Shown: piece by piece, positions 41,782 to 60,622 of the stretch
Position numbering within the stretch: the stretch's first letter is position 1
Layout: every line of letters begins with the position of its first letter
Assembly (NCBI GenBank): GCA_003450735.1
Contig: DMEZ01000013.1
Coordinates: 1-61,410 of the forward strand
Direction of reading: 5' to 3'
Origin: Elusimicrobiota bacterium
GTDB taxonomy: Bacteria; Elusimicrobiota; Elusimicrobia; UBA1565
Length of the DNA: 61,410 nt
Made by a program: the position numbers and the translations under genes
The notes under the pieces: generated by a model
What the model saw: the letters and a program-made list of their open reading frames with translations, nothing else
Told to the model about the DNA's origin: nothing
Databases searched by the model: none

Positions 41782-42453
41782 GTGCGTTCCCTTCCCTTCT
41801 TTCTGCTCACGGCTTGGACGCCGTGCGCCTTCGCGCAGACGAACCCGAACTATCTGCCGGTCTTCGAATCCGGCATGAAGTCGGCCGGCCTTCAACTGGG
41901 CCTGAACCGGCCGATGGCGACTCGGGATTTCGATCAGGACGTAGGCCCAGGGGCGGCTTTGAACCTGTCTGGGAGCTACTTCGTCTTGGATTGGATCGCG
42001 ATCGGAGCCGAGCTTGGCTATGTCACGTTCGGAGCTCGGACCCACGCCGAGACGGACGCAGTGGGAACCACCGCCGACATAGAGCGAGAAGCCGCAGGAT
42101 TTTATGCAGACATCATCGGGCGGTTCAATCTCGTGCGTGAACGGACATGGACGCCGTATGTCCTCGGCGGCGTAGGGCGCCATACCGTCGTGATGGCCAT
42201 CACATCGAAGACTCCAGGCGCCCTCCTCTGCTCGACCTCTGGACAGTGCTCCTCGACCGCCACAGGCTCAGCCGGGAGCGGCATGACATGGACCGTCGGA
42301 GCAGGCGCCGAGTTCTTCATCATCCGCGGCATGACCCTGTCCCTGGAGGCCCGCTACCGCCAGTTCAATCTCAACAAGCAATTCCTCATTCCCAACTCCA
42401 TTGAGTCCTTGAGTTATCAGCTTGGCATGACATTTTATTTCGGTCACTCATGA
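41782..42453 (+). CDS. Outer-membrane beta-barrel protein (OmpA/OmpW-like small barrel), copy 1
   Basis: GTG start. Signal peptide VRSLPFFLLTAWTPCAFAQ. Alternating beta-strand pattern. C-terminal aromatic YFGHS. Confidence 0.45.
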   Translation: MRSLPFFLLTAWTPCAFAQTNPNYLPVFESGMKSAGLQLGLNRPMATRDFDQDVGPGAALNLSGSYFVLDWIAIGAELGYVTFGARTHAETDAVGTTADIEREAAGFYADIIGRFNLVRERTWTPYVLGGVGRHTVVMAITSKTPGALLCSTSGQCSSTATGSAGSGMTWTVGAGAEFFIIRGMTLSLEARYRQFNLNKQFLIPNSIESLSYQLGMTFYFGHS

Positions 42454-43019
42454 TGCCCCTTCATCGCCTGCGAAGCCTGGCGGCTCCGCTGCTCTTCTTC
42501 TGGGCCGCAACGGCCTCGGCCCAGTCGGCGCCGGGCTACACCCCTCTATTCGATGAAGGCCTCAAGTCGGTCGCGCTCCGTCTAGGAGCTTCGCGCCCCA
42601 CTCCTTCCAACGGCTTCGACAAGGACGCCAAGGCCGGCCCGGGGCTCTCCCTGCAGGGGCTCTACTACGCCTGGGACTGGGTCGGCGTCGGAGCCGACCT
42701 GGGCTATCATACCTTCGGGAAGGACGCGAATGCTCTCGCGCTCGATGCCATCGTCCGATTGAACTTCCTTCGGGAGTCTTCATGGTCGCCTTATCTTATG
42801 GGAGGGGCTGGCCACGCCCAGAGCTCGGTGACCCGCAACGGCGCGAAAGAGTCGTCGACCGGAGGCTCCTTCCTCGCCGCCGGAGGGATCGAGGCCTTCG
42901 TCCTGCGCGGCATGAGCGTCTCCTTCGAGGCGCGCTTTACGGCGTTCCGGGGAGGCGGCAGCGGGGTCGAGTCCCTCGCCTACCTGCTCGGGGCCGCGTT
43001 CTGGTTCGGCTACGACTGA
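42450..43019 (+). CDS. Outer-membrane beta-barrel protein, tandem paralog (copy 2)
   Basis: ATGA overlap. Signal peptide ...AATASAQS. Same architecture as copy 1 (PLFDEGLKS..., C-terminal FWFGYD). Confidence 0.45.
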   Translation: MMPLHRLRSLAAPLLFFWAATASAQSAPGYTPLFDEGLKSVALRLGASRPTPSNGFDKDAKAGPGLSLQGLYYAWDWVGVGADLGYHTFGKDANALALDAIVRLNFLRESSWSPYLMGGAGHAQSSVTRNGAKESSTGGSFLAAGGIEAFVLRGMSVSFEARFTAFRGGGSGVESLAYLLGAAFWFGYD

Positions 43020-45142: not shown

Positions 45143-46393
45143 ATGCCCCTGAAAAGAAGCCGGAACGCCGACGCCGAAATCCGGGCCCTGCGGGCCCAGC
45201 TCGCCCGCGAGCGCTCCCAGAGCCGGCGCCGCGCGGAGCTCTTCGAGAAGGCCATCCAGACCAACGACCTGCGCGAGGTGGGCGAGGAGATGTACCGCTA
45301 CTTCTTCAGCCACTTCGGCGTCTACAAGGGCGACATCACCATCCTGACCGACTACGACGAGCGCGAGTTCTACGACCTCGTCGGCTGGACGCCCCGCCAG
45401 GACACGCCCTCCCCCGAGGAGCTGCTGCGCCTGGCGACCCAGCACTGCGAGTACCTGCGCAGCCTCGTCGAGGAGCAGATCTTCATCGGCTACAGCCCCG
45501 ACGAGGAGCGGGAGATCAAGGAATCCTACCTGGTCGAGCAGAGCATGCTCGAGAGCATGGTCACCAAGGCGCCCCGCCTCGTCAACGACGTGCTCTGTGA
45601 GCTCTCGGCCAAGGAGATCGAGGAAGCCAAGAAGCAGCAGACCCGCTCCTGGCTGAACTGGACGGTGCTCCACCCGGACAACTCGAAGCTGCTGGCCAAG
45701 ATGCACATGTCCTTCCGCAAGGCCCGCAAGCGGACCCTCGCCGAACTCACGCGCCAGCTGCGCCCCTTCGAGAACCTGCTCGGCTACCGCATCCTGCACA
45801 CCCGGGACTTCAAGCGGGTCAAGTACCTCTCCGAGCGCGACGCCCTGACGGGGCTCTACCTGCGCCCCACGCTGGCCAAGCGCTGGGACTACGCCGTGGA
45901 CCACGGCTCGCGCGGCCGCCGGAAGGCCGCCGTCAGCGTGGCCATGCTGGACCTGGACCTCTTCAAGCGCTTCAACGACAACTACGGGCACGAGGTGGGA
46001 GACCGGGTCCTGCGGCACTTCGCGCAGTCGGTGCAGTCGGCCCTGCGCGGGACCGACGTGGTGGGCCGCTACGGCGGCGAGGAGTTCGTGGCCCTCTTCC
46101 CCGGCGCCGACACGGGCGGGGTGCTCACCATCCTCAAGCGCATCCACGAGCGCATCAAGGACGTCAACTTCCTGCCGCCCGCGGCCTGGGTCGCGGGCGC
46201 CACGCCCGAGCACCTGCGCTTCAGCGCCGGCGTCTTCACCCTGGAGCCCGGCCGCAAGGACGCGAAGCCCAGCTTCGACGAGGCCATCAAGGCCGCCGAC
46301 GAGCTGCTCCTCTACTGCAAGCAGTCCGGCCGCAACGCGGCCGCCTACCGGGACTCGGCCGGCCGCATCCGGCGCTTCCGCTTCGAAGACTAG
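45143..46393 (+). CDS. Diguanylate cyclase (GGDEF domain) with an N-terminal domain of unknown function
   Basis: GGEEF motif RYGGEEF. GGDEF signatures FKRFNDNYGH and DALTGL. 10 nt downstream of the flotillin gene. Confidence 0.8.
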   Translation: MPLKRSRNADAEIRALRAQLARERSQSRRRAELFEKAIQTNDLREVGEEMYRYFFSHFGVYKGDITILTDYDEREFYDLVGWTPRQDTPSPEELLRLATQHCEYLRSLVEEQIFIGYSPDEEREIKESYLVEQSMLESMVTKAPRLVNDVLCELSAKEIEEAKKQQTRSWLNWTVLHPDNSKLLAKMHMSFRKARKRTLAELTRQLRPFENLLGYRILHTRDFKRVKYLSERDALTGLYLRPTLAKRWDYAVDHGSRGRRKAAVSVAMLDLDLFKRFNDNYGHEVGDRVLRHFAQSVQSALRGTDVVGRYGGEEFVALFPGADTGGVLTILKRIHERIKDVNFLPPAAWVAGATPEHLRFSAGVFTLEPGRKDAKPSFDEAIKAADELLLYCKQSGRNAAAYRDSAGRIRRFRFED

Positions 46394-46413
46394 CGGACCG
46401 CGCTGGAGCCGTC

Positions 46414-47307
46414 ATGCTATCGCCGATCCGCATATCCCCGAGCCTCGCGGCGCTCCTGCTCGCTCTGCCGGCGCATCCGGCCGCGCCGCAGCCGTCCACG
46501 ACCGAGATTATCCATACCGGTCATCTCATCGTGGATGATCATGAAGTCCCGCCGCCCTACAAGGTCGAAGCGATCGGGGAGATTGTCCTGCTGAACGGCA
46601 TCCAGATCTACCCGCACAAGCCCACGCCCTCCGAGATCGCGGAAAACGCCGAGAAGCAGGAGGCGAGGAAACTGCTGGACTCGCTCCACGAGGAGTTCGA
46701 CAAGATTGAGAAGCTGGAGGGGCATGAGAAGGCCGTCGACCAGCTAAGAATGGAATTGAGGAAACATCCCAAGTACAAGAACTTTTCAATCGAAGAGACG
46801 GATGGGGGTACCAGAGTCGATCTTGGGATGGGTAGCGATGATGCACTGGAGCATAGCTACTTCTTTCGATTCATGGGTAAGAAATATCGTCAATTTAATG
46901 ACAGTCACAGAGGTCCACTAATCGATCCAGGCTTAGGAATAGGGGACATCATCGAAATCGCAGTAAATCGGGTACTACTGGACCCTCTATTGCGGCTGGC
47001 TAGAGCAATCCTCGGAATCAAGATACAAAACGAAGAGAACCACCCCGGTTTCGCCAGCAAGACTATCCAAAGCGAGTTTAACTCGGTTACACATCCTTTG
47101 GGAACCAAGGGCTGCGTAGTGGTATTGGAAGGGCATTTATATTGGACAACCAAATTTAAAGCCAAGTTCGCTTGCGATGAATACTTGAGGGTCGTCCACA
47201 ATAAAACCACTATGGATGCCGCATGGAAAAACCTGCGCTATCATTTCGTGGACTCAGACTACATGGAGAAACATCTGCGGCGATACCTGAAAGCCAAAGG
47301 CAGATGA
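46414..47307 (+). CDS. Secreted hypothetical protein; the 3' two-thirds of the gene is compositionally anomalous (low GC)
   Basis: Signal peptide MLSPIRISPSLAALLLALPAHPAA. No domain recognised. GC drops sharply from about 46740 onward. Confidence 0.4.
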   Translation: MLSPIRISPSLAALLLALPAHPAAPQPSTTEIIHTGHLIVDDHEVPPPYKVEAIGEIVLLNGIQIYPHKPTPSEIAENAEKQEARKLLDSLHEEFDKIEKLEGHEKAVDQLRMELRKHPKYKNFSIEETDGGTRVDLGMGSDDALEHSYFFRFMGKKYRQFNDSHRGPLIDPGLGIGDIIEIAVNRVLLDPLLRLARAILGIKIQNEENHPGFASKTIQSEFNSVTHPLGTKGCVVVLEGHLYWTTKFKAKFACDEYLRVVHNKTTMDAAWKNLRYHFVDSDYMEKHLRRYLKAKGR

Positions 47308-47518
47308 TACATTCACGACGGGATACCGCTTGCCGTTGTTCGAGCTTCCGCCCCGCCGATAGGCGGGGACGAAGCCGCGCGCCCGAGGCGCGTAAAAAGC
47401 GCCTTTTCGACGGATCGGATCGCTCTATCCCATCTCTCGATCGTTGAACATGCAAACATTCTTCAAGGAGCGAGTCGCTCTCCCATCGATCAACCCTGTC
47501 TACTCCGACTTATAACCA

Positions 47519-47550
47519 CCTGTTCCGGCTCCATCCTGTTCCGGCTCCAT
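47519..47550. repeat. 16-bp perfect tandem duplication (CCTGTTCCGGCTCCAT x2)
   Basis: Read directly from the sequence. Confidence 0.9.
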
Positions 47551-47600
47551 CTTCTCCCGTGGGGGGGACTACTTGGAAATAACGCTTAAATAATAAGCCA

Positions 47601-47628
47601 AATCAACATCGTCCGGACGATGTTGATT
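47601..47628. repeat. Perfect 28-bp palindrome (AATCAACATCGTCC|GGACGATGTTGATT)
   Basis: Read directly from the sequence. Lies in the low-GC intergenic island between 47307 and 47919. Confidence 0.9.
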
Positions 47629-47918
47629 GTGCTGAAAAAATAAGCGGAATCTCAGAGGGGTGGGGGGGGCAGCCGTTCTCCCGGAGTCTCAACAACCCAT
47701 GAGGATCCCCTCATGTACCGATAGCATCGCAAGCGTTGGCACTCTTTCCACTCAAACGACCGGCACCCCGCCGGAACCGATGCGGACATCCCCGCTTGAA
47801 AGCCCAATCGCCTAGGCCCCCGAGCCCGACCGGCCCACTGCGCAGGCCCATTAGGCCCAGCGTGTTTTCAGGCCCCTAGCCCCTGTCGGCGCCCGCCTGA
47901 CGCCGCTACACTCAAGAC

Positions 47919-49736
47919 ATGAAGCGGTCACTGGGCCTCCTCCTCGCCCTCCTCCTCTCGGCGCAGACCTCGCAGGCGCAGTTCGTGCAGAGCGCGGCCG
48001 CCCTCGCGGCCCCGAAGGCCGGCGTCGCCCTCCCCGCGGGCCTGGCCTTGCCGCAGGTCGCCGCCCCCGGGCTCCTCAGCCCGCTCTACGCTCCGAACCT
48101 GAACCTCGGCCTCCCTCTGCCGGCCGCCCCGCTCGCGGCGCCGAAGGTTTCGGCCCCGGCCAAGGCCCAGGCCCCGCGCGCCCTGCTCAAAGAAGCCCCC
48201 ATCCCCGCGTCGCCCCTAGGCGACGCAGGGACGGCGCGAGCGGAGAACGGCCAGCGCGCCGCGACCGTCCTCGAGCAGCTCCAGCAGGTCCAGGCCCCCG
48301 CCGCCGAGGCCGCCTCGCCCGAGCGCATCGAACAGCTCTACAACGGAGGGGTGAAGCCGGAGGCGTCCGCGGCCGAGGCCCTCGAGGCCCCGGAGGTCGA
48401 GGAAGGCCTGCCGCTGGGCTGGGTCCGCAAGGAGCAGGCCAAGAGCCGCTCGGTGGACTCGAGGACCGCCAGGCTCCAGCGCAAGGCGCAGAGCCGGGGC
48501 TTCTCCAGGGCCGCCCTGAACCCCGAGGTGCTCAAGCGCCACAACGCCCATTACACGCACGAGGTCCCGGTCGGCGAGGTCACCGACCAGAAGTCGTCGG
48601 GCCGCTGCTGGATCTTCGCCGGCCTGAACATGATCCGCTCCATGATGCTCGCCGAGGGGCGCATCGGAAAGGACTTCGAGTTCTCGCAGAACTACCTTTA
48701 CTTCTTCAGCCAGCTCGAGCAGTCGAACCGCTACCTCGAGCAGGTCATGAAGGCGGCCTATGAGCCGGGCTCGGTGAAGCACATCCCGCGCGACCTCCAG
48801 ATGATCGCCCCCAGCGTCGAGGACGGCGGGCACTTCGAATACCTGCAGTTCCTCGTCGGCAAGTACGGCCTCGTCCCGAAGAGCGCGATGCCGGAGACCA
48901 AGAGCTCGGGCGCGACGGACGGGCTCGACGGCGAGCTCAACTACAGCCTGGGCATCACCGTGCGGGAGTTGCTCGAGGACGCCCGCGCCCTCGAGAACGG
49001 CCGAGGCCCCTCCCGCGCGCGTGAGATCCGGGAGCGGGGGATGGACCGCGTCTGGAAGATCCTGGCCGCGCACCTCGGCACCCCGCCCGAGCGCGTCTCC
49101 CACCCCGTGAAGGGCCGCAAGCGCTCCTTCACGCCCCAGCGCTTCGCCAAGGACTTCGCCGGCTACCGCCTAGACGACTACGTCCACGTCACCGCCTACC
49201 CCTACGAGAAGCAGGGCGTCGCGGGAGAGGAGGACGACAGCTCGATCGGCGCCGCCACGCGCGGCCACCGTGCCCGCAACGTCAAGGCCCTCAACGTGAG
49301 CCTCGACCGGCTCGAGCGGCTGGCCCTCGCGGCCCTCGAGGGCGGCCAGCCCGTCGACATCTTCGCCTCCATGAAGCGGGACATCAGCGGGAAGACGGGC
49401 ATCATGCACCCCGCCGTCTTCGACCGCGCCGCGGTCTACGGCTGGTCGGCCGAGCAGGAGCGTGAGAAGCTCACCCGCGCCCAGGGCGTCTCGCTGGGCC
49501 TCAACGGCCCCGACCACCTCATGATGCTGACCGGCTTCGACCGGCCCGACCCGGAGAAGCCCGTCGTCAAGTTCAAGGTCGAGAACTCCTGGGGCCCGAA
49601 GATCGGCGACCACGGCGTCTTCCACATGTACCGCGAGTGGTTCCGGCAGAACCTGTTCGGCATCGTCGTCCACAAGAGCTTCCTATCCAAGGCCGAGCGC
49701 AAGGCCTGGGAAGCCGCCAAGAAGAACGCGGACTGA
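47919..49736 (+). CDS. pepC: Peptidase C1B (aminopeptidase C / bleomycin hydrolase)-like cysteine peptidase with an N-terminal signal peptide and Ala/Pro-rich extension
   Basis: Active-site QKSSGRCWIFAGLNM. C-terminal catalytic region NSWGPKIGDHGVFHM. A signal peptide and ~150-aa low-complexity N-terminal region precede the catalytic domain. Confidence 0.75.
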   Translation: MKRSLGLLLALLLSAQTSQAQFVQSAAALAAPKAGVALPAGLALPQVAAPGLLSPLYAPNLNLGLPLPAAPLAAPKVSAPAKAQAPRALLKEAPIPASPLGDAGTARAENGQRAATVLEQLQQVQAPAAEAASPERIEQLYNGGVKPEASAAEALEAPEVEEGLPLGWVRKEQAKSRSVDSRTARLQRKAQSRGFSRAALNPEVLKRHNAHYTHEVPVGEVTDQKSSGRCWIFAGLNMIRSMMLAEGRIGKDFEFSQNYLYFFSQLEQSNRYLEQVMKAAYEPGSVKHIPRDLQMIAPSVEDGGHFEYLQFLVGKYGLVPKSAMPETKSSGATDGLDGELNYSLGITVRELLEDARALENGRGPSRAREIRERGMDRVWKILAAHLGTPPERVSHPVKGRKRSFTPQRFAKDFAGYRLDDYVHVTAYPYEKQGVAGEEDDSSIGAATRGHRARNVKALNVSLDRLERLALAALEGGQPVDIFASMKRDISGKTGIMHPAVFDRAAVYGWSAEQEREKLTRAQGVSLGLNGPDHLMMLTGFDRPDPEKPVVKFKVENSWGPKIGDHGVFHMYREWFRQNLFGIVVHKSFLSKAERKAWEAAKKNAD

Positions 49737-56615: not shown

Positions 56616-58172
56616 ATGCTGAAATTTCCGATAAAATGCGGGTTCATGGCCTCTCTTTCCGGCCAGACCGTGCTCCTCACCCGCCCCAAGCGCCAGTCCA
56701 GCGGGTTGGCTCGTTTGCTCGCGCGCCTGGGTGCCCGGAGCGTCCCGGTCCCGCTCATCCGCACGCGCGCCCCGCGCAGTTGGAAGCCGCTCGACGCGGC
56801 CCTGCGCGCCCTCGAAAGCTTCGATGCGGTGGCCTTCACGAGCGCCAACGGCGTGGAGGGCTTCTTCCAGAGGGCTCGCCGGGTCTTCAAGAGAACTCCT
56901 CGCGCCCCCCGGAGGATCTACGCCATCGGCCCGGCCACCGCCCAAGCCCTGGCCGGGCACGGCTGGCGGGCTCTCAGCGTCCCGGAGGACCACGAAGGAG
57001 GGGCCTTGGCCCGCCGCATGGGGAAGGTGAAGGGGATGAAGATCCTCATCCCCCGGGCCCAGACCGCTCGGGAGGAACTGCCGGCCCTCCTCCGGAAGGC
57101 GGGAGCCGACGTCCGCATCGCGCCCGCCTACCGGACGGAGCCTGATCCGGCAGGCCGCCGGGCCCTGCGCCGCTCATCAAGCGCCGACTGGGTGACCTTC
57201 ACTTCGGTCTCGACCGTCAGGGCGTTCTTCGACGCCCTGGGGGAGACGGAGGCCCGACGCTTCCTCTCCCGGGCCCGAGCCGCCGCCATCGGTCCAGTCA
57301 CGGCGGCCGAACTCAGGAGCCGCGGCGTCGAACCGGCGGCCCAGGCCCGGCCCTCCACCTCGGAGGGTCTCGCCCAGGCTCTCGCCGACGCCGCCGACCT
57401 CAGGGGCACGCTCGTCGCCGCCCTAAGGGAAGCCGGCGCCGTCCTGCGGGAGCGCTACGGGAAGGTGCATGTCCGCTACAAAGGGCGCGCGAACCTGGTC
57501 ACCGAGGCCGACCACGCCAGCGAGCAGCGCATCCTCGACGTCATCCTCTCCCGCTATCCGAGCCACGATTTTCTGACGGAAGAGCGCGAGCCCCGCTCGA
57601 CCGGCTCGGATTTCGTCTGGGTGGTGGACCCGCTCGACGGCACCACGAACTACGCGCACGGCTTCCCGGTCTTCTGCGTCTCCATCGGGCTCCTGCACCG
57701 AGGACGCCCGCTCCTGTCGGGAGTCTACGACCCCTGCCGGAACGAGATGTTCCTGGCCGAGCGGGGACGCGGGGCGATGCTCAACGGCAAGCCCCTGCGT
57801 GTCTCGAGAGCGGGGAACGTGTCCGAATCCCTCCTGCTGACCGGCTTCGCCTACGACCGGGCCGCGCGGGCCGACTACCTCATCCGCTTTTATAAGGAAT
57901 TCATGCGCCGCTGCCACGATGTGCGCCGTTCGGGCTCCGCCGCGCTGGACCTGGCGTGGACGGCCGCCGGCAGGGTGGACGGCTACTGGGAGTTCTCGCT
58001 CAAGCCCTGGGACGTCGCGGCCGGCTGGCTGCTGGTCAGCGAGGCGGGGGGGGAGGTCACCGACTTCTCCGGCAAGGCCTGGGACGGCCTGAAACTCCTT
58101 GGACGCGAGACCCTCGCCAGCAACGGCCGAATCCACGCGCAGATGCTCCGCCTCATCCGCCGCCACCTCTAA
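56616..58172 (+). CDS. Fusion protein: uroporphyrinogen-III synthase (HemD) domain + inositol monophosphatase-family (SuhB/IMPase) domain
   Basis: N-terminal ~250 aa HemD-like (VLLTRP...). C-terminal IMPase motifs TEADHASEQ, WVVDPLDGTTNY, WDVAAG. Alternative start at 56646. Confidence 0.65.
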   Translation: MLKFPIKCGFMASLSGQTVLLTRPKRQSSGLARLLARLGARSVPVPLIRTRAPRSWKPLDAALRALESFDAVAFTSANGVEGFFQRARRVFKRTPRAPRRIYAIGPATAQALAGHGWRALSVPEDHEGGALARRMGKVKGMKILIPRAQTAREELPALLRKAGADVRIAPAYRTEPDPAGRRALRRSSSADWVTFTSVSTVRAFFDALGETEARRFLSRARAAAIGPVTAAELRSRGVEPAAQARPSTSEGLAQALADAADLRGTLVAALREAGAVLRERYGKVHVRYKGRANLVTEADHASEQRILDVILSRYPSHDFLTEEREPRSTGSDFVWVVDPLDGTTNYAHGFPVFCVSIGLLHRGRPLLSGVYDPCRNEMFLAERGRGAMLNGKPLRVSRAGNVSESLLLTGFAYDRAARADYLIRFYKEFMRRCHDVRRSGSAALDLAWTAAGRVDGYWEFSLKPWDVAAGWLLVSEAGGEVTDFSGKAWDGLKLLGRETLASNGRIHAQMLRLIRRHL

Positions 58173-58297
58173 ACGCTGGTGCCTGAAACGCTGGTGCCTG
58201 TCATTACACTCCGCACACCATACACCTGGCGCCACAGGCCCGCATCAAGACCAAAGTGTAATGACCCGCAGGTGTAATGACAGGCACCTACTCCTAA
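58171..58297. repeat. Composite palindromic intergenic element: 15-bp tandem duplication, then a 17-bp perfect inverted repeat (GGTGCCTGTCATTACAC / GTGTAATGACAGGCACC) separated by 62 nt
   Basis: Tandem AAACGCTGGTGCCTG x2 at 58171-58200. IR arms at 58193-58209 and 58272-58288. GTGTAATGAC duplicated at 58257-58266. Confidence 0.85.
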
Positions 58298-60267: not shown

Positions 60268-60326
60268 GGTCAGATTTGCAAGTTTAGAGGAATTTCATCC
60301 GTCTGTCAATAGGAGGTATGTGTTAT

Positions 60327-60431
60327 ATGCTGGAAAACTATGGATATGATGGATCAGCTGTTACGAATCATCAACAACAGGGTGTGGACGTTGTTAAACA
60401 ATTAATAAAATATTCAAGCCTGACACCATAA
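60327..60431 (+). CDS. Candidate small ORF (34 aa) in an AT-rich island
   Basis: AGGAGG at 60311-60316, 10 nt upstream of the ATG. Peptide MLENYGYDGSAVTNHQQQGVDVVKQLIKYSSLTP. Speculative. Confidence 0.2.
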   Translation: MLENYGYDGSAVTNHQQQGVDVVKQLIKYSSLTP

Positions 60432-60622
60432 ATTACAAACAATGATGAATACTGCTTGTTTTATATGCATTATAAGTGACTCTCTCGTGCATAACAAGTC
60501 TGGCACTCATTAACTTGACTGCCTGAGCTCCGGTTTGCTATCATTGCCGGACATGCTCGTACATTCGCCGAGTCCCTCCGCCGCGTGCATGCAATCCCAA
60601 CTGTGACGGGAGCCCCCATATC

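Follow-up and report, generated by a model that had tools for sequence, protein, structure and literature searches.

The main finding of this work is that the low-GC stretch at positions 46740-47918 of the window (the whole 61,410-nt stretch of DNA analysed, from an uncultivated, high-GC, Elusimicrobiota-like groundwater bacterium) consists of two adjacent things, the foreign-codon part of a real gene, here called ORFX, and a spacer of normal composition. On balance we favor the view that ORFX is a mosaic produced when a host-adapted copy recombined with a foreign-type one from the same family, lying beside this normal spacer. Ordinary gene transfer and recombination explain the feature, and no new kind of element is required. 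The locus offers a clean, small case of a compositionally mosaic gene, and its value for annotation is that ORFX is real, not a fusion artefact, and that the spacer need not be foreign. Its wider value is modest and lies in the ORFX family, which is extremely rare, has no relative in Pfam, NCBIfam, PHROGs, PADLOC or the PDB, is at most other loci lower in GC at third codon positions (GC3) than adjoining host-like genes and has giant-protein neighbours.

Compositional mosaic within ORFX

ORFX (46414..47307, plus strand) is predicted from the ORF listing, its homologues and an AlphaFold model to encode a secreted protein, 297 aa long and about 30 kDa in size, that would be exported and that belongs to a rare family not yet characterised. 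The gene closes a tightly spaced same-strand run composed of two OMP beta-barrel genes, SPFH, GGDEF and ORFX itself. It lies between two native genes on the plus strand, a GGDEF diguanylate cyclase (45143..46393; GC3 0.98), whose stop is only 20 nt from the ORFX ATG, and a secreted, pepC-like aminopeptidase of the C1 family (47919..49736; GC3 0.96).

A likelihood change-point analysis placed a break after codon 110, at nt 46744, with a GC3 of 0.836 up to this codon and 0.524 beyond it (log-likelihood ratio 15.7, matched in 0 of 5000 permutations). This agrees with the first-pass annotation, according to which the GC drop began about one third of the way into the gene. When a two-state HMM was applied to GC3, GGDEF, pepC and SPFH were each returned as one host-type segment and ORFX as four. 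Codons 1-31 (46414..46506), the signal-peptide region, are near host-like (GC3 0.87) and are followed by a short patch that is foreign-type in its third-position bases (codons 32-44, 46507..46545; GC3 0.38). Codons 45-110 (46546..46743) form a host-like patch with a GC3 of 0.91, which holds the family's most conserved part (PPxxVE...NGIQxYP, a helix), and codons 111-297 (46744..47307) form a foreign-type tract that is still coding, with 46% GC and a GC3 of 0.52. The earlier proposal of horizontally acquired or recombined DNA is supported for the 3' two-thirds of ORFX, given the abrupt switch and the contrast in GC3 between this part (0.52) and the flanking genes (0.96-0.98), but the spacer need not be foreign.

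ORFX is a genuine gene, its low-GC part included. Over codons 111-297 its frame contains 0 stops in 187 codons at 46% GC, whereas the five alternative frames have 6-11 apiece, and since the probability of staying open by chance is 1.7e-5, coding constraint acts on the low-GC tract. The protein aligns over its full length with 12 distant homologues, with whole-protein homology to P0002-P0007. Identity to homologues of 40-42% persists over residues 111-160, 50 residues past the GC break, and the family-conserved C234, G240, C254, L274 and F278 all sit in the low-GC part. In an AlphaFold model built with the family alignment (pLDDT 77.7), residues 30-150 and 211-297 are confident and form one protein; residues 167-210 are unconfident, and ORFX is without about 45 residues that its homologues conserve. 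The break itself lies mid-helix, in a part of the protein that is conserved, and coincides with no domain or signal-peptide boundary. The idea of a chimeric ORF, in the sense of unrelated sequences joined together, is not supported, since family homology runs through both compositional parts and the fold is a single confident one. Full-length homology to the 12 homologues, the one-protein model and the open frame show that ORFX is no fusion with unrelated DNA, and because both parts are homologous, share one fold and are joined by conservation that crosses the break, the break is better read as a recombination junction between two versions of one gene than as a gene fusion. ORFX matched no family in Pfam, NCBIfam, PADLOC or PHROGs, and no relative was found in the PDB.

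The spacer upstream of pepC

The low-GC stretch had been described as an island of approximately 47% against 69% GC. The collapse is real and is the minimum of the window, as all 1179-bp windows of lowest GC in the 61 kb begin at 46451-46751, but the interval 46740-47918 has 52.8% GC and the window 67.9%. Nor is it a single island reaching to the pepC start: it is made of three unequal pieces, namely coding DNA at 46744-47307 (46.1%), 47308-47813 (56.1%) and 47814-47918 (71.4%), and in a cumulative-deviation plot the low-GC run is over by about 47814. The spacer between ORFX and pepC measures 611 bp and has 56-59% GC. Since the short intergenic gaps of the window span 43-60% GC on a crude gene map, in which genes away from the locus were placed by a GC3 filter alone (the gap at 60268-60622, for instance, has 43%), this spacer is long but ordinary in composition.

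Every small feature that had been noted in the interval is present exactly at its assigned coordinates. Just downstream of ORFX, a GC-rich hairpin cluster followed by TTTT (47344..47406, plus strand; inverted repeat I4) probably ends transcription of ORFX and of the gene run that it closes. Its fold (-50.9 kcal/mol, z = -2.1) is only modestly better than that of shuffled sequences. Five contigs from other assemblies end close by, at 47317-47346. The first-pass annotation had called positions 47345-47395 terminator-like; the stems do fold as drawn and TTTT does follow the last of them, but the z-score is only -2.1 and a scan for simple consensus terminators did not call the hairpins at 47344-47406.

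Further downstream, a perfect 16-bp tandem duplication (CCTGTTCCGGCTCCAT, twice) occupies 47519..47550 and is identical in all spanning contigs; about 1e-5 such duplications are expected per 61 kb, and the window holds one other, of 15 bp, at 58171. It is followed by an AT-rich foldback lying between a G7 tract (47561-47567) and a G8 tract (47662-47669), that is, within 47561..47669. A perfect 28-bp palindrome at 47601-47628, beyond chance, constitutes the core of this 78-bp imperfect foldback (47576-47653), which is the largest short-range inverted repeat of the window, with 39-nt arms that are 74% complementary and a minus-strand RNA fold of -31.3 kcal/mol (z = -7.7). The two G tracts are not unusual in a window with 16 G-runs of at least 7, and phase variation at them was rejected, as the contigs spanning both runs are all identical.

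The last element is a GC-rich segment with four AGGCCC motifs (47814..47883, plus strand), 35-105 nt upstream of pepC. Four copies in 70 bp make this the densest cluster in the window, which contains 79 copies in all. Of four distant Elusimicrobiota relatives, two (L001 and L003) likewise have GGCCC-rich DNA ahead of pepC, and the cluster is probably native upstream sequence of pepC, the GC-rich region as a whole being, in our model, pepC's own. Like the palindrome and the tandem duplication, the AGGCCC cluster is not a random feature. Rfam gave no match at the gathering score over the whole window and none at E <= 1 over 47280-47960, and the window contains no tRNA or tmRNA genes. The ORFs of the spacer are short (at most 81 aa) and mostly overlap on opposite strands. 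Neither a decayed family copy (tblastn of family members; family HMM on six-frame translations) nor a relic of a giant partner gene (tblastn of giant partner proteins) was found in the spacer.

Origin of the mosaic

An exhaustive HMMER search found 13 cluster representatives of the ORFX family among 1.84 billion, the 12 distant homologues among them, and among 5.8 billion proteins there was no close relative of ORFX besides itself. A profile search of a word-indexed protein database returned only two members, both already known; a scan of JGI metagenomes with the ORFX protein gave no relative, and the family profile found no second copy elsewhere in the window. The family gene has a GC3 below that of adjoining host-like genes at six of eight other loci (L082, L083, L084, L086, L087 and L098), with values of 0.47 against 0.83-0.90 at L082, 0.67 against 0.90-0.97 at L083, 0.56-0.63 against 0.95-0.96 for the three tandem copies of L084, 0.61 against 0.87 at L086 and 0.53 against 0.64-0.69 at L087. 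More distant members, at L097 and L099, have native composition. Some family genes adjoin toxin-antitoxin-type genes (AbiEii, NTP_transf_2). As a whole, the family behaves like transferable accessory DNA. Taken with the foreign GC3 and the abrupt switch of ORFX, the low GC3 at six of eight other loci makes a horizontally derived or recombined origin the best reading of the gene. In addition, at one locus two tandem paralogues, P0004 and P0005, share 72% identity in their N part and 28-42% elsewhere, and since their N part is homogenised, recombination in the N-terminal half does occur in this family.

From composition and homology we infer the recombination event, its direction and its donor, and we hypothesize the following sequence. 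A host-adapted family copy would have been resident after GGDEF, and the 20-nt gap between GGDEF and ORFX, together with the host-like 5' end, fits a long-resident 5' end of the gene. A second copy may have come in from a genome of approximately 45-50% GC, and homologous recombination or gene conversion could have joined the two, with junctions in the conserved N-terminal half, chiefly at 46744. At its 3' end the imported tract would reach past the ORFX stop, to somewhere between about 47320 and 47814, a range within which the end cannot be placed because AT-rich DNA is usual for spacers here. The tract, whose neighbours are SPFH, GGDEF and pepC, is marked by no mobility gene, no tRNA and no direct repeats at its flanks. 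Parental alleles of the blocks, host-type or foreign-type, were absent from the protein and contig collections searched. A phage or plasmid origin was rejected, as there was no DNA match in either collection, no plasmid protein match and no viral-contig relative.

Unlikely, though the closest competitor of recombination, is that the whole of ORFX was acquired at once, its heterogeneity being inherited from the donor or due to selection at the 5' end for translation start or export, with no recombination in this host. That the family gene is compositionally foreign at most other loci is consistent with such an acquisition, and so is the GC3 of the N part, which exceeds that of the C part in four homologue genes (0.55/0.43, 0.68/0.67, 0.62/0.53 and 0.67/0.60); as the N part of homologues is mildly GC3-richer, part of the ORFX gradient could be a family property. 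However, the step in ORFX, from 0.84 to 0.52, with 0.91 over codons 45-110, far exceeds that of any homologue, and it occurs in mid-helix in a conserved stretch. Acquisition in one piece is also difficult to reconcile with the foreign-type patch of codons 32-44, which splits the host-type part, and with a native GGDEF just 20 nt upstream.

Less probable still is that ORFX (about 46420-47320) is a discrete cassette found in several genomic contexts, a small mobile unit with no recognisable recombinase or attachment sites. This possibility is suggested by one contig (L081) that matches 46420-47319 at 99.8%, but begins with 172 bp that have no counterpart in the window and whose junction falls 6 nt after the ORFX ATG. 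In the same direction point the ends of three independent contigs, at 47317, 47319 and 47320, and of another at 47346. Nevertheless, L081 has a coverage of 1.44-fold and a search of the protein database gave no homologue for its 5' flank, for which reasons it is likely a chimeric contig, and the GGDEF junction is the normal one in L102 and in five further contigs. The contig ends lie just before the hairpin cluster, which has 80% GC, and one contig ends at the palindrome, at 47631, both being common assembly break sites. Direct repeats and an attC-like consensus are lacking, no integrase was seen among the genes annotated near the locus, and a cassette would leave the GC3 step inside ORFX unexplained.

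Very improbable, in our judgement, is that ORFX is entirely native and that relaxed selection, together with mutation biased towards AT, has left its 3' part in decay. The lack of the roughly 45 homologue-conserved residues and the unconfident residues 167-210 would fit decay, but decay accounts poorly for the open frame of 187 codons and for the preserved family-conserved residues and confident C-terminal fold. Moreover, neutral drift of GC3 from about 0.95 to 0.52 would wipe out homology, and the homologues are low-GC in other hosts too.

At least five samples, in six assemblies besides this one, contain the locus at 99.97-100% identity and with gene order kept where covered, all these contigs being from the same population. 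Two long contigs (L088/L093 and L092) extend from SPFH through pepC and beyond, and five independent contigs, from differing samples and assemblers, span the break. Faulty assembly is thus excluded as the source of the mosaic, and although the odd composition and the several contigs that break nearby might suggest an assembly or binning chimera carrying a piece of another organism, this can be practically dismissed, as the five contigs cross 46744 at 99.97-100% and both the frame and the protein homology are unbroken over the junction. There was no synteny in the nearest genomes, with 51% pepC identity, and 80 pepC loci from reference genomes included no syntenic relative.

Relation to known systems

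In the amelioration framework of Lawrence and Ochman, acquired genes and islets are reportedly recognised by atypical third-position GC. ORFX resembles such islets in the GC3 of its tract (0.52 against 0.96-0.98 in the host) and in the patchy distribution of its family, foreign-looking in several hosts and sometimes beside toxin-antitoxin-type genes. It differs from them in that only part of one gene is affected, and in the lack of a tRNA, flanking repeats, other cargo or, among the annotated neighbours, an integrase. Mosaic genes can also arise by intragenic homologous recombination between diverged alleles, as with the penicillin-binding-protein genes in Streptococcus and Neisseria. Like these genes, ORFX shows abrupt blocks in one intact frame, all homologous to the same family; unlike them, its parental alleles were not found and its blocks are set by composition, not by donor similarity.

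In polymorphic toxin loci, C-terminal parts are replaced, as in the AT-rich tips of Rhs proteins and in CdiA-CT. ORFX is comparable in having a conserved, host-like N part and a more divergent, AT-richer C part, and the family has tandem copies elsewhere with a homogenised N part, but ORFX is small and has neither repeats nor a demarcation motif. A polymorphic toxin was rejected, because the C-terminal parts of family members can be aligned with one another and have Cys, Gly and Phe positions in common, and because no immunity ORF lies downstream, the spacer ORFs, none above 81 aa, being without a family-profile match.

Giant surface proteins are repeatedly encoded just downstream of family genes, and if this pairing is functional, the family may represent a new accessory component of large-adhesin systems. 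A tentative reading of the N-terminal domain of the giant partners as caspase- or gingipain-like, an impression from motifs, drew no support from Pfam or from a PDB profile search. A bolder reading, which we consider improbable, is that the family is an undescribed, recombination-shuffled module: a small periplasmic partner whose gene normally stands immediately before that of a giant Ig/fn3 surface protein, with its conserved N-terminal half as recombination handle and with either its 3' part or the entire ORF (about 46420-47320) mobile between genomes and contexts, without a recognisable recombinase. If so, the 5' junction of L081 and the contig ends at 47317-47320 would be real cassette borders.

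An ORFan-like short gene of odd composition followed by an imperfect palindrome, with L081 as a possible second context, recalls integron cassettes. A cassette of this type was rejected by eye, as the palindrome lies 290 nt past the ORFX stop and has no outer RYYYAAC/GTTRRRY; its AAC...GTT bases are only 14 nt apart, inside the perfect palindrome, and in attC the R''/R' criterion refers to the ends of a 57-140-nt imperfect palindrome that comes directly after the ORF. No attC was found between GGDEF and ORFX, and no integrase was seen among the genes annotated near the locus (transketolase, two OMP beta-barrel, SPFH, GGDEF, pepC, housekeeping). A diversity-generating retroelement was also rejected: comparison of 46400-47950 with the window gave no template repeat, the palindrome being the only match, and no reverse-transcriptase-like gene was seen among the annotated neighbours of ORFX.

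Finally, the AT-rich segment of about 94 bp with its 39-nt inverted arms, bracketed by G7 and G8, is similar to miniature inverted-repeat elements, but G-runs are common in the window and the foldback is single-copy in the 61 kb, self-comparison of 46400-47950 having revealed no second copy. The 22-nt core of the palindrome is present at two unrelated metagenome loci, where its flanks are dissimilar.

Extent of the low-GC tract

The GC content of the whole window is 67.9%, and every one of the lowest 1179-bp windows in the 61 kb begins at 46451-46751; the GC collapse described in the first-pass annotation is therefore real and unique at that scale. The uniform island of about 47% GC claimed for 46740-47918 did not hold, since this interval has 52.8% GC overall and is divided into a coding part within ORFX (46744-47307, forward strand, 46.1%), the first part of the spacer (47308-47813, 56.1%) and its last part before pepC (47814-47918, 71.4%). 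Nor does the low GC reach the pepC start, as had been proposed: in a cumulative-deviation plot the low-GC run stops at about 47814. According to a crude gene map of the window built on third-position GC, short intergenic gaps have 43-60% GC, and one divergent spacer of 355 bp upstream of a ketosynthase-like gene (60268-60622), the only other strongly low-GC patch, has 43% and looks like an ordinary promoter region. The 611-bp ORFX-pepC spacer is thus long, yet normal in composition, and a special explanation is needed for the coding part only.

ORFX as a gene and its compositional mosaic

ORFX (46414-47307), encoding a secreted protein of 297 aa from a rare family, is real and a single gene. 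It is the last of a same-strand run formed by two OMP beta-barrel genes, SPFH and GGDEF, and starts 20 nt from the GGDEF stop codon. Its low-GC part comprises 187 codons without a stop, against 6-11 stops in each of the remaining five frames, and the chance of these codons staying open is 1.7e-5. A word-indexed search of 5.8 billion proteins returned just one 99%-identical fragment; 12 distant homologues (254-718 aa) came from an exhaustive search with HMMER that covered 1.84 billion cluster representatives. The six closest are alignable over the entire length of ORFX, which lacks about 45 central residues found in the homologues, and the invariant C234, G240, C254, L274 and F278 fall in the low-GC part. 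The AlphaFold model, obtained from an input alignment of 11 sequences, had a pLDDT of 77.7 and a pTM of 0.65, with high confidence at residues 30-150 and 211-297 and low confidence at 167-210. Judged by eye, the N-terminus resembles a Sec signal peptide, as do those of the homologues; Pfam, NCBIfam, PADLOC, PHROGs, PDB sequences and a fold search gave no match. The tandem OMP beta-barrel paralogues that head the run (41782-42453 and 42450-43019) are compositionally atypical too, showing intermediate GC3 (third-codon-position GC) of 0.73 and 0.81 versus 0.94-0.98 in core neighbours.

Within ORFX, GC3 is 0.84 in codons 1-110 versus 0.52 in codons 111-297, and it is 0.96-0.98 in SPFH, GGDEF and pepC. 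The best change-point lies after codon 110, at nt 46744 (log-likelihood ratio 15.7; score attained by 0 of 5000 permutations), essentially identical to the island start at 46740 given in the first-pass annotation. A two-state HMM assigned a single host-type segment to each of the three neighbouring genes versus four segments to ORFX, namely codons 1-31 (host-type), 32-44 (foreign-type), 45-110 (host-type) and 111-297 (foreign-type). Conservation at the protein level shows no such segmentation, with identity to the homologues P0002-P0004 of 40-48% at residues 28-110 that persists at 40-42% beyond the break (residues 111-160). Since conservation continues past the break, which falls within a predicted helix of the AlphaFold model, codon 110 looks like the junction of two versions of one gene and not a domain fusion. 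The best explanation of the low-GC coding tract, favoured with moderate confidence, is foreign-type DNA from ORFX's own gene family that entered a host-adapted copy by recombination or exchanged sequence with it. The proposal of foreign or recombined DNA creating a chimeric ORF is half right: foreign-type DNA is the favoured reading for the coding tract, and the composition of the spacer is ordinary. A fusion with unrelated DNA was rejected because the homology to the family is full-length and covers both compositional parts.

The mosaic is not an assembly artefact. The locus is present in seven contigs from other assemblies, which represent at least six samples; six of the seven contigs are 99.97-100% identical to the window over the full shared length, with gene order kept where covered, and five of these six cross the 46744 break. 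The long contigs L088/L093 and L092 span from SPFH to past pepC. The former (JGI Ga0103681_1000246) is identical to the window until 50733, after which the RNase HII region is replaced by other sequence, suggesting either that strains are rearranged here or that the assembly was joined at this point. The nearest reference genomes, Elusimicrobiota bins, have pepC identities of at most 51% and no synteny with the window.

Contig L081 (ENA ERZ5996431, 1.44-fold coverage) matches 46420-47319, and its high-GC first 172 nt (L081:1-172), joined to ORFX 6 nt past the ATG, are unrelated sequence with no match and hold a possible divergent ORF without a homologue. Contig ends, in five cases from different assemblies and samples, fall at 47317, 47319, 47320, 47346 and 47631, just before GC hairpins or right after a palindrome. 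The mundane reading is that L081 is a chimeric low-coverage contig and that the contig ends are assembly breaks at strong hairpins; alternatively, the locus would have a genuine second context, or structural polymorphism would begin just past the stop codon.

The ORFX family in other loci

Family genes at other loci have lower GC3 than their host-like neighbours: 0.47 versus 0.83-0.90 in L082, 0.67 versus 0.90-0.97 in L083, 0.56-0.63 versus 0.95-0.96 for three tandem copies in L084, 0.61 versus 0.87 in L086 and 0.53 versus 0.64-0.69 in L087. Composition is native in L097 and L099, which hold more distant members. Between the tandem paralogues P0004 and P0005, identity reaches 72% in the N part and just 28-42% elsewhere, which shows that recombination or conversion affects the N part within the family. 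The ORFX mosaic is a fresh case of an event type that is well known. At L084:3-2508, at least three tandem copies constitute a low-GC block adjoining a 70%-GC GlgE gene; for two of these copies, identity is 72% between the N-terminal parts and 28-42% over the rest.

Giant Ig/fn3 surface-protein genes lie directly downstream of the family gene in L083 (10954-16062) and L097 (1766-9520), and in L087 (908-2239) and L099 (1180-2901) it precedes genes for related proteins of 443 aa and at least 574 aa; all four products are large secreted proteins. They are alignable over the N-terminal ~450 residues, a region that matches nothing in Pfam or PDB and has an invariant C-x-S and a GHG-like motif, giving the impression of a possible cysteine-peptidase-like dyad. 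Upstream of the family gene, L082 and L098 carry toxin-antitoxin-type nucleotidyltransferase genes. Neither a giant surface-protein-type partner gene nor a relic of one was detected in the window. What is mildly novel here is confined to the family, which is uncharacterised, and to its association with giant surface proteins.

Elements of the spacer

The small features listed in the first-pass annotation were all recovered exactly where it had placed them. GC-rich hairpins followed by TTTT (47344-47406), directly past the ORFX stop codon, are a plausible terminator candidate, and a consensus terminator scan made no call there; the spacer matched no Rfam family. The 16-bp tandem duplication (47519-47550), the perfect 28-bp palindrome (47601-47628) and the AGGCCC cluster (47814-47883) each exceed chance. 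With 16 G-runs of at least 7 in the window, the G7 and G8 tracts are not unusual. They bracket an AT-rich foldback (47568-47661), 3' of the duplication, whose fold is far stronger than those of shuffled sequences (z = -7.7); it has no further copy in the window and contains the palindrome, itself the core of the window's largest short-range inverted repeat. Two unrelated metagenome loci with 71-72% GC also carry the 22-nt palindrome core CAACATCGTCCGGACGATGTTG (L094:4300-4325; L095:3305-3330 and L096:1033-1058, which are one locus); the two have 26 identical nt in common and, flanks included, showed no further resemblance to the window. At 58171-58200, where another spacer begins, the window has one more perfect tandem duplication (AAACGCTGGTGCCTG x2, 15 bp). 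The AGGCCC cluster, the densest in the window, sits in GC-rich DNA immediately upstream of pepC and is taken to be probable native pepC upstream sequence; GGCCC-rich sequence likewise precedes pepC in L001 and L003, both from distant relatives.
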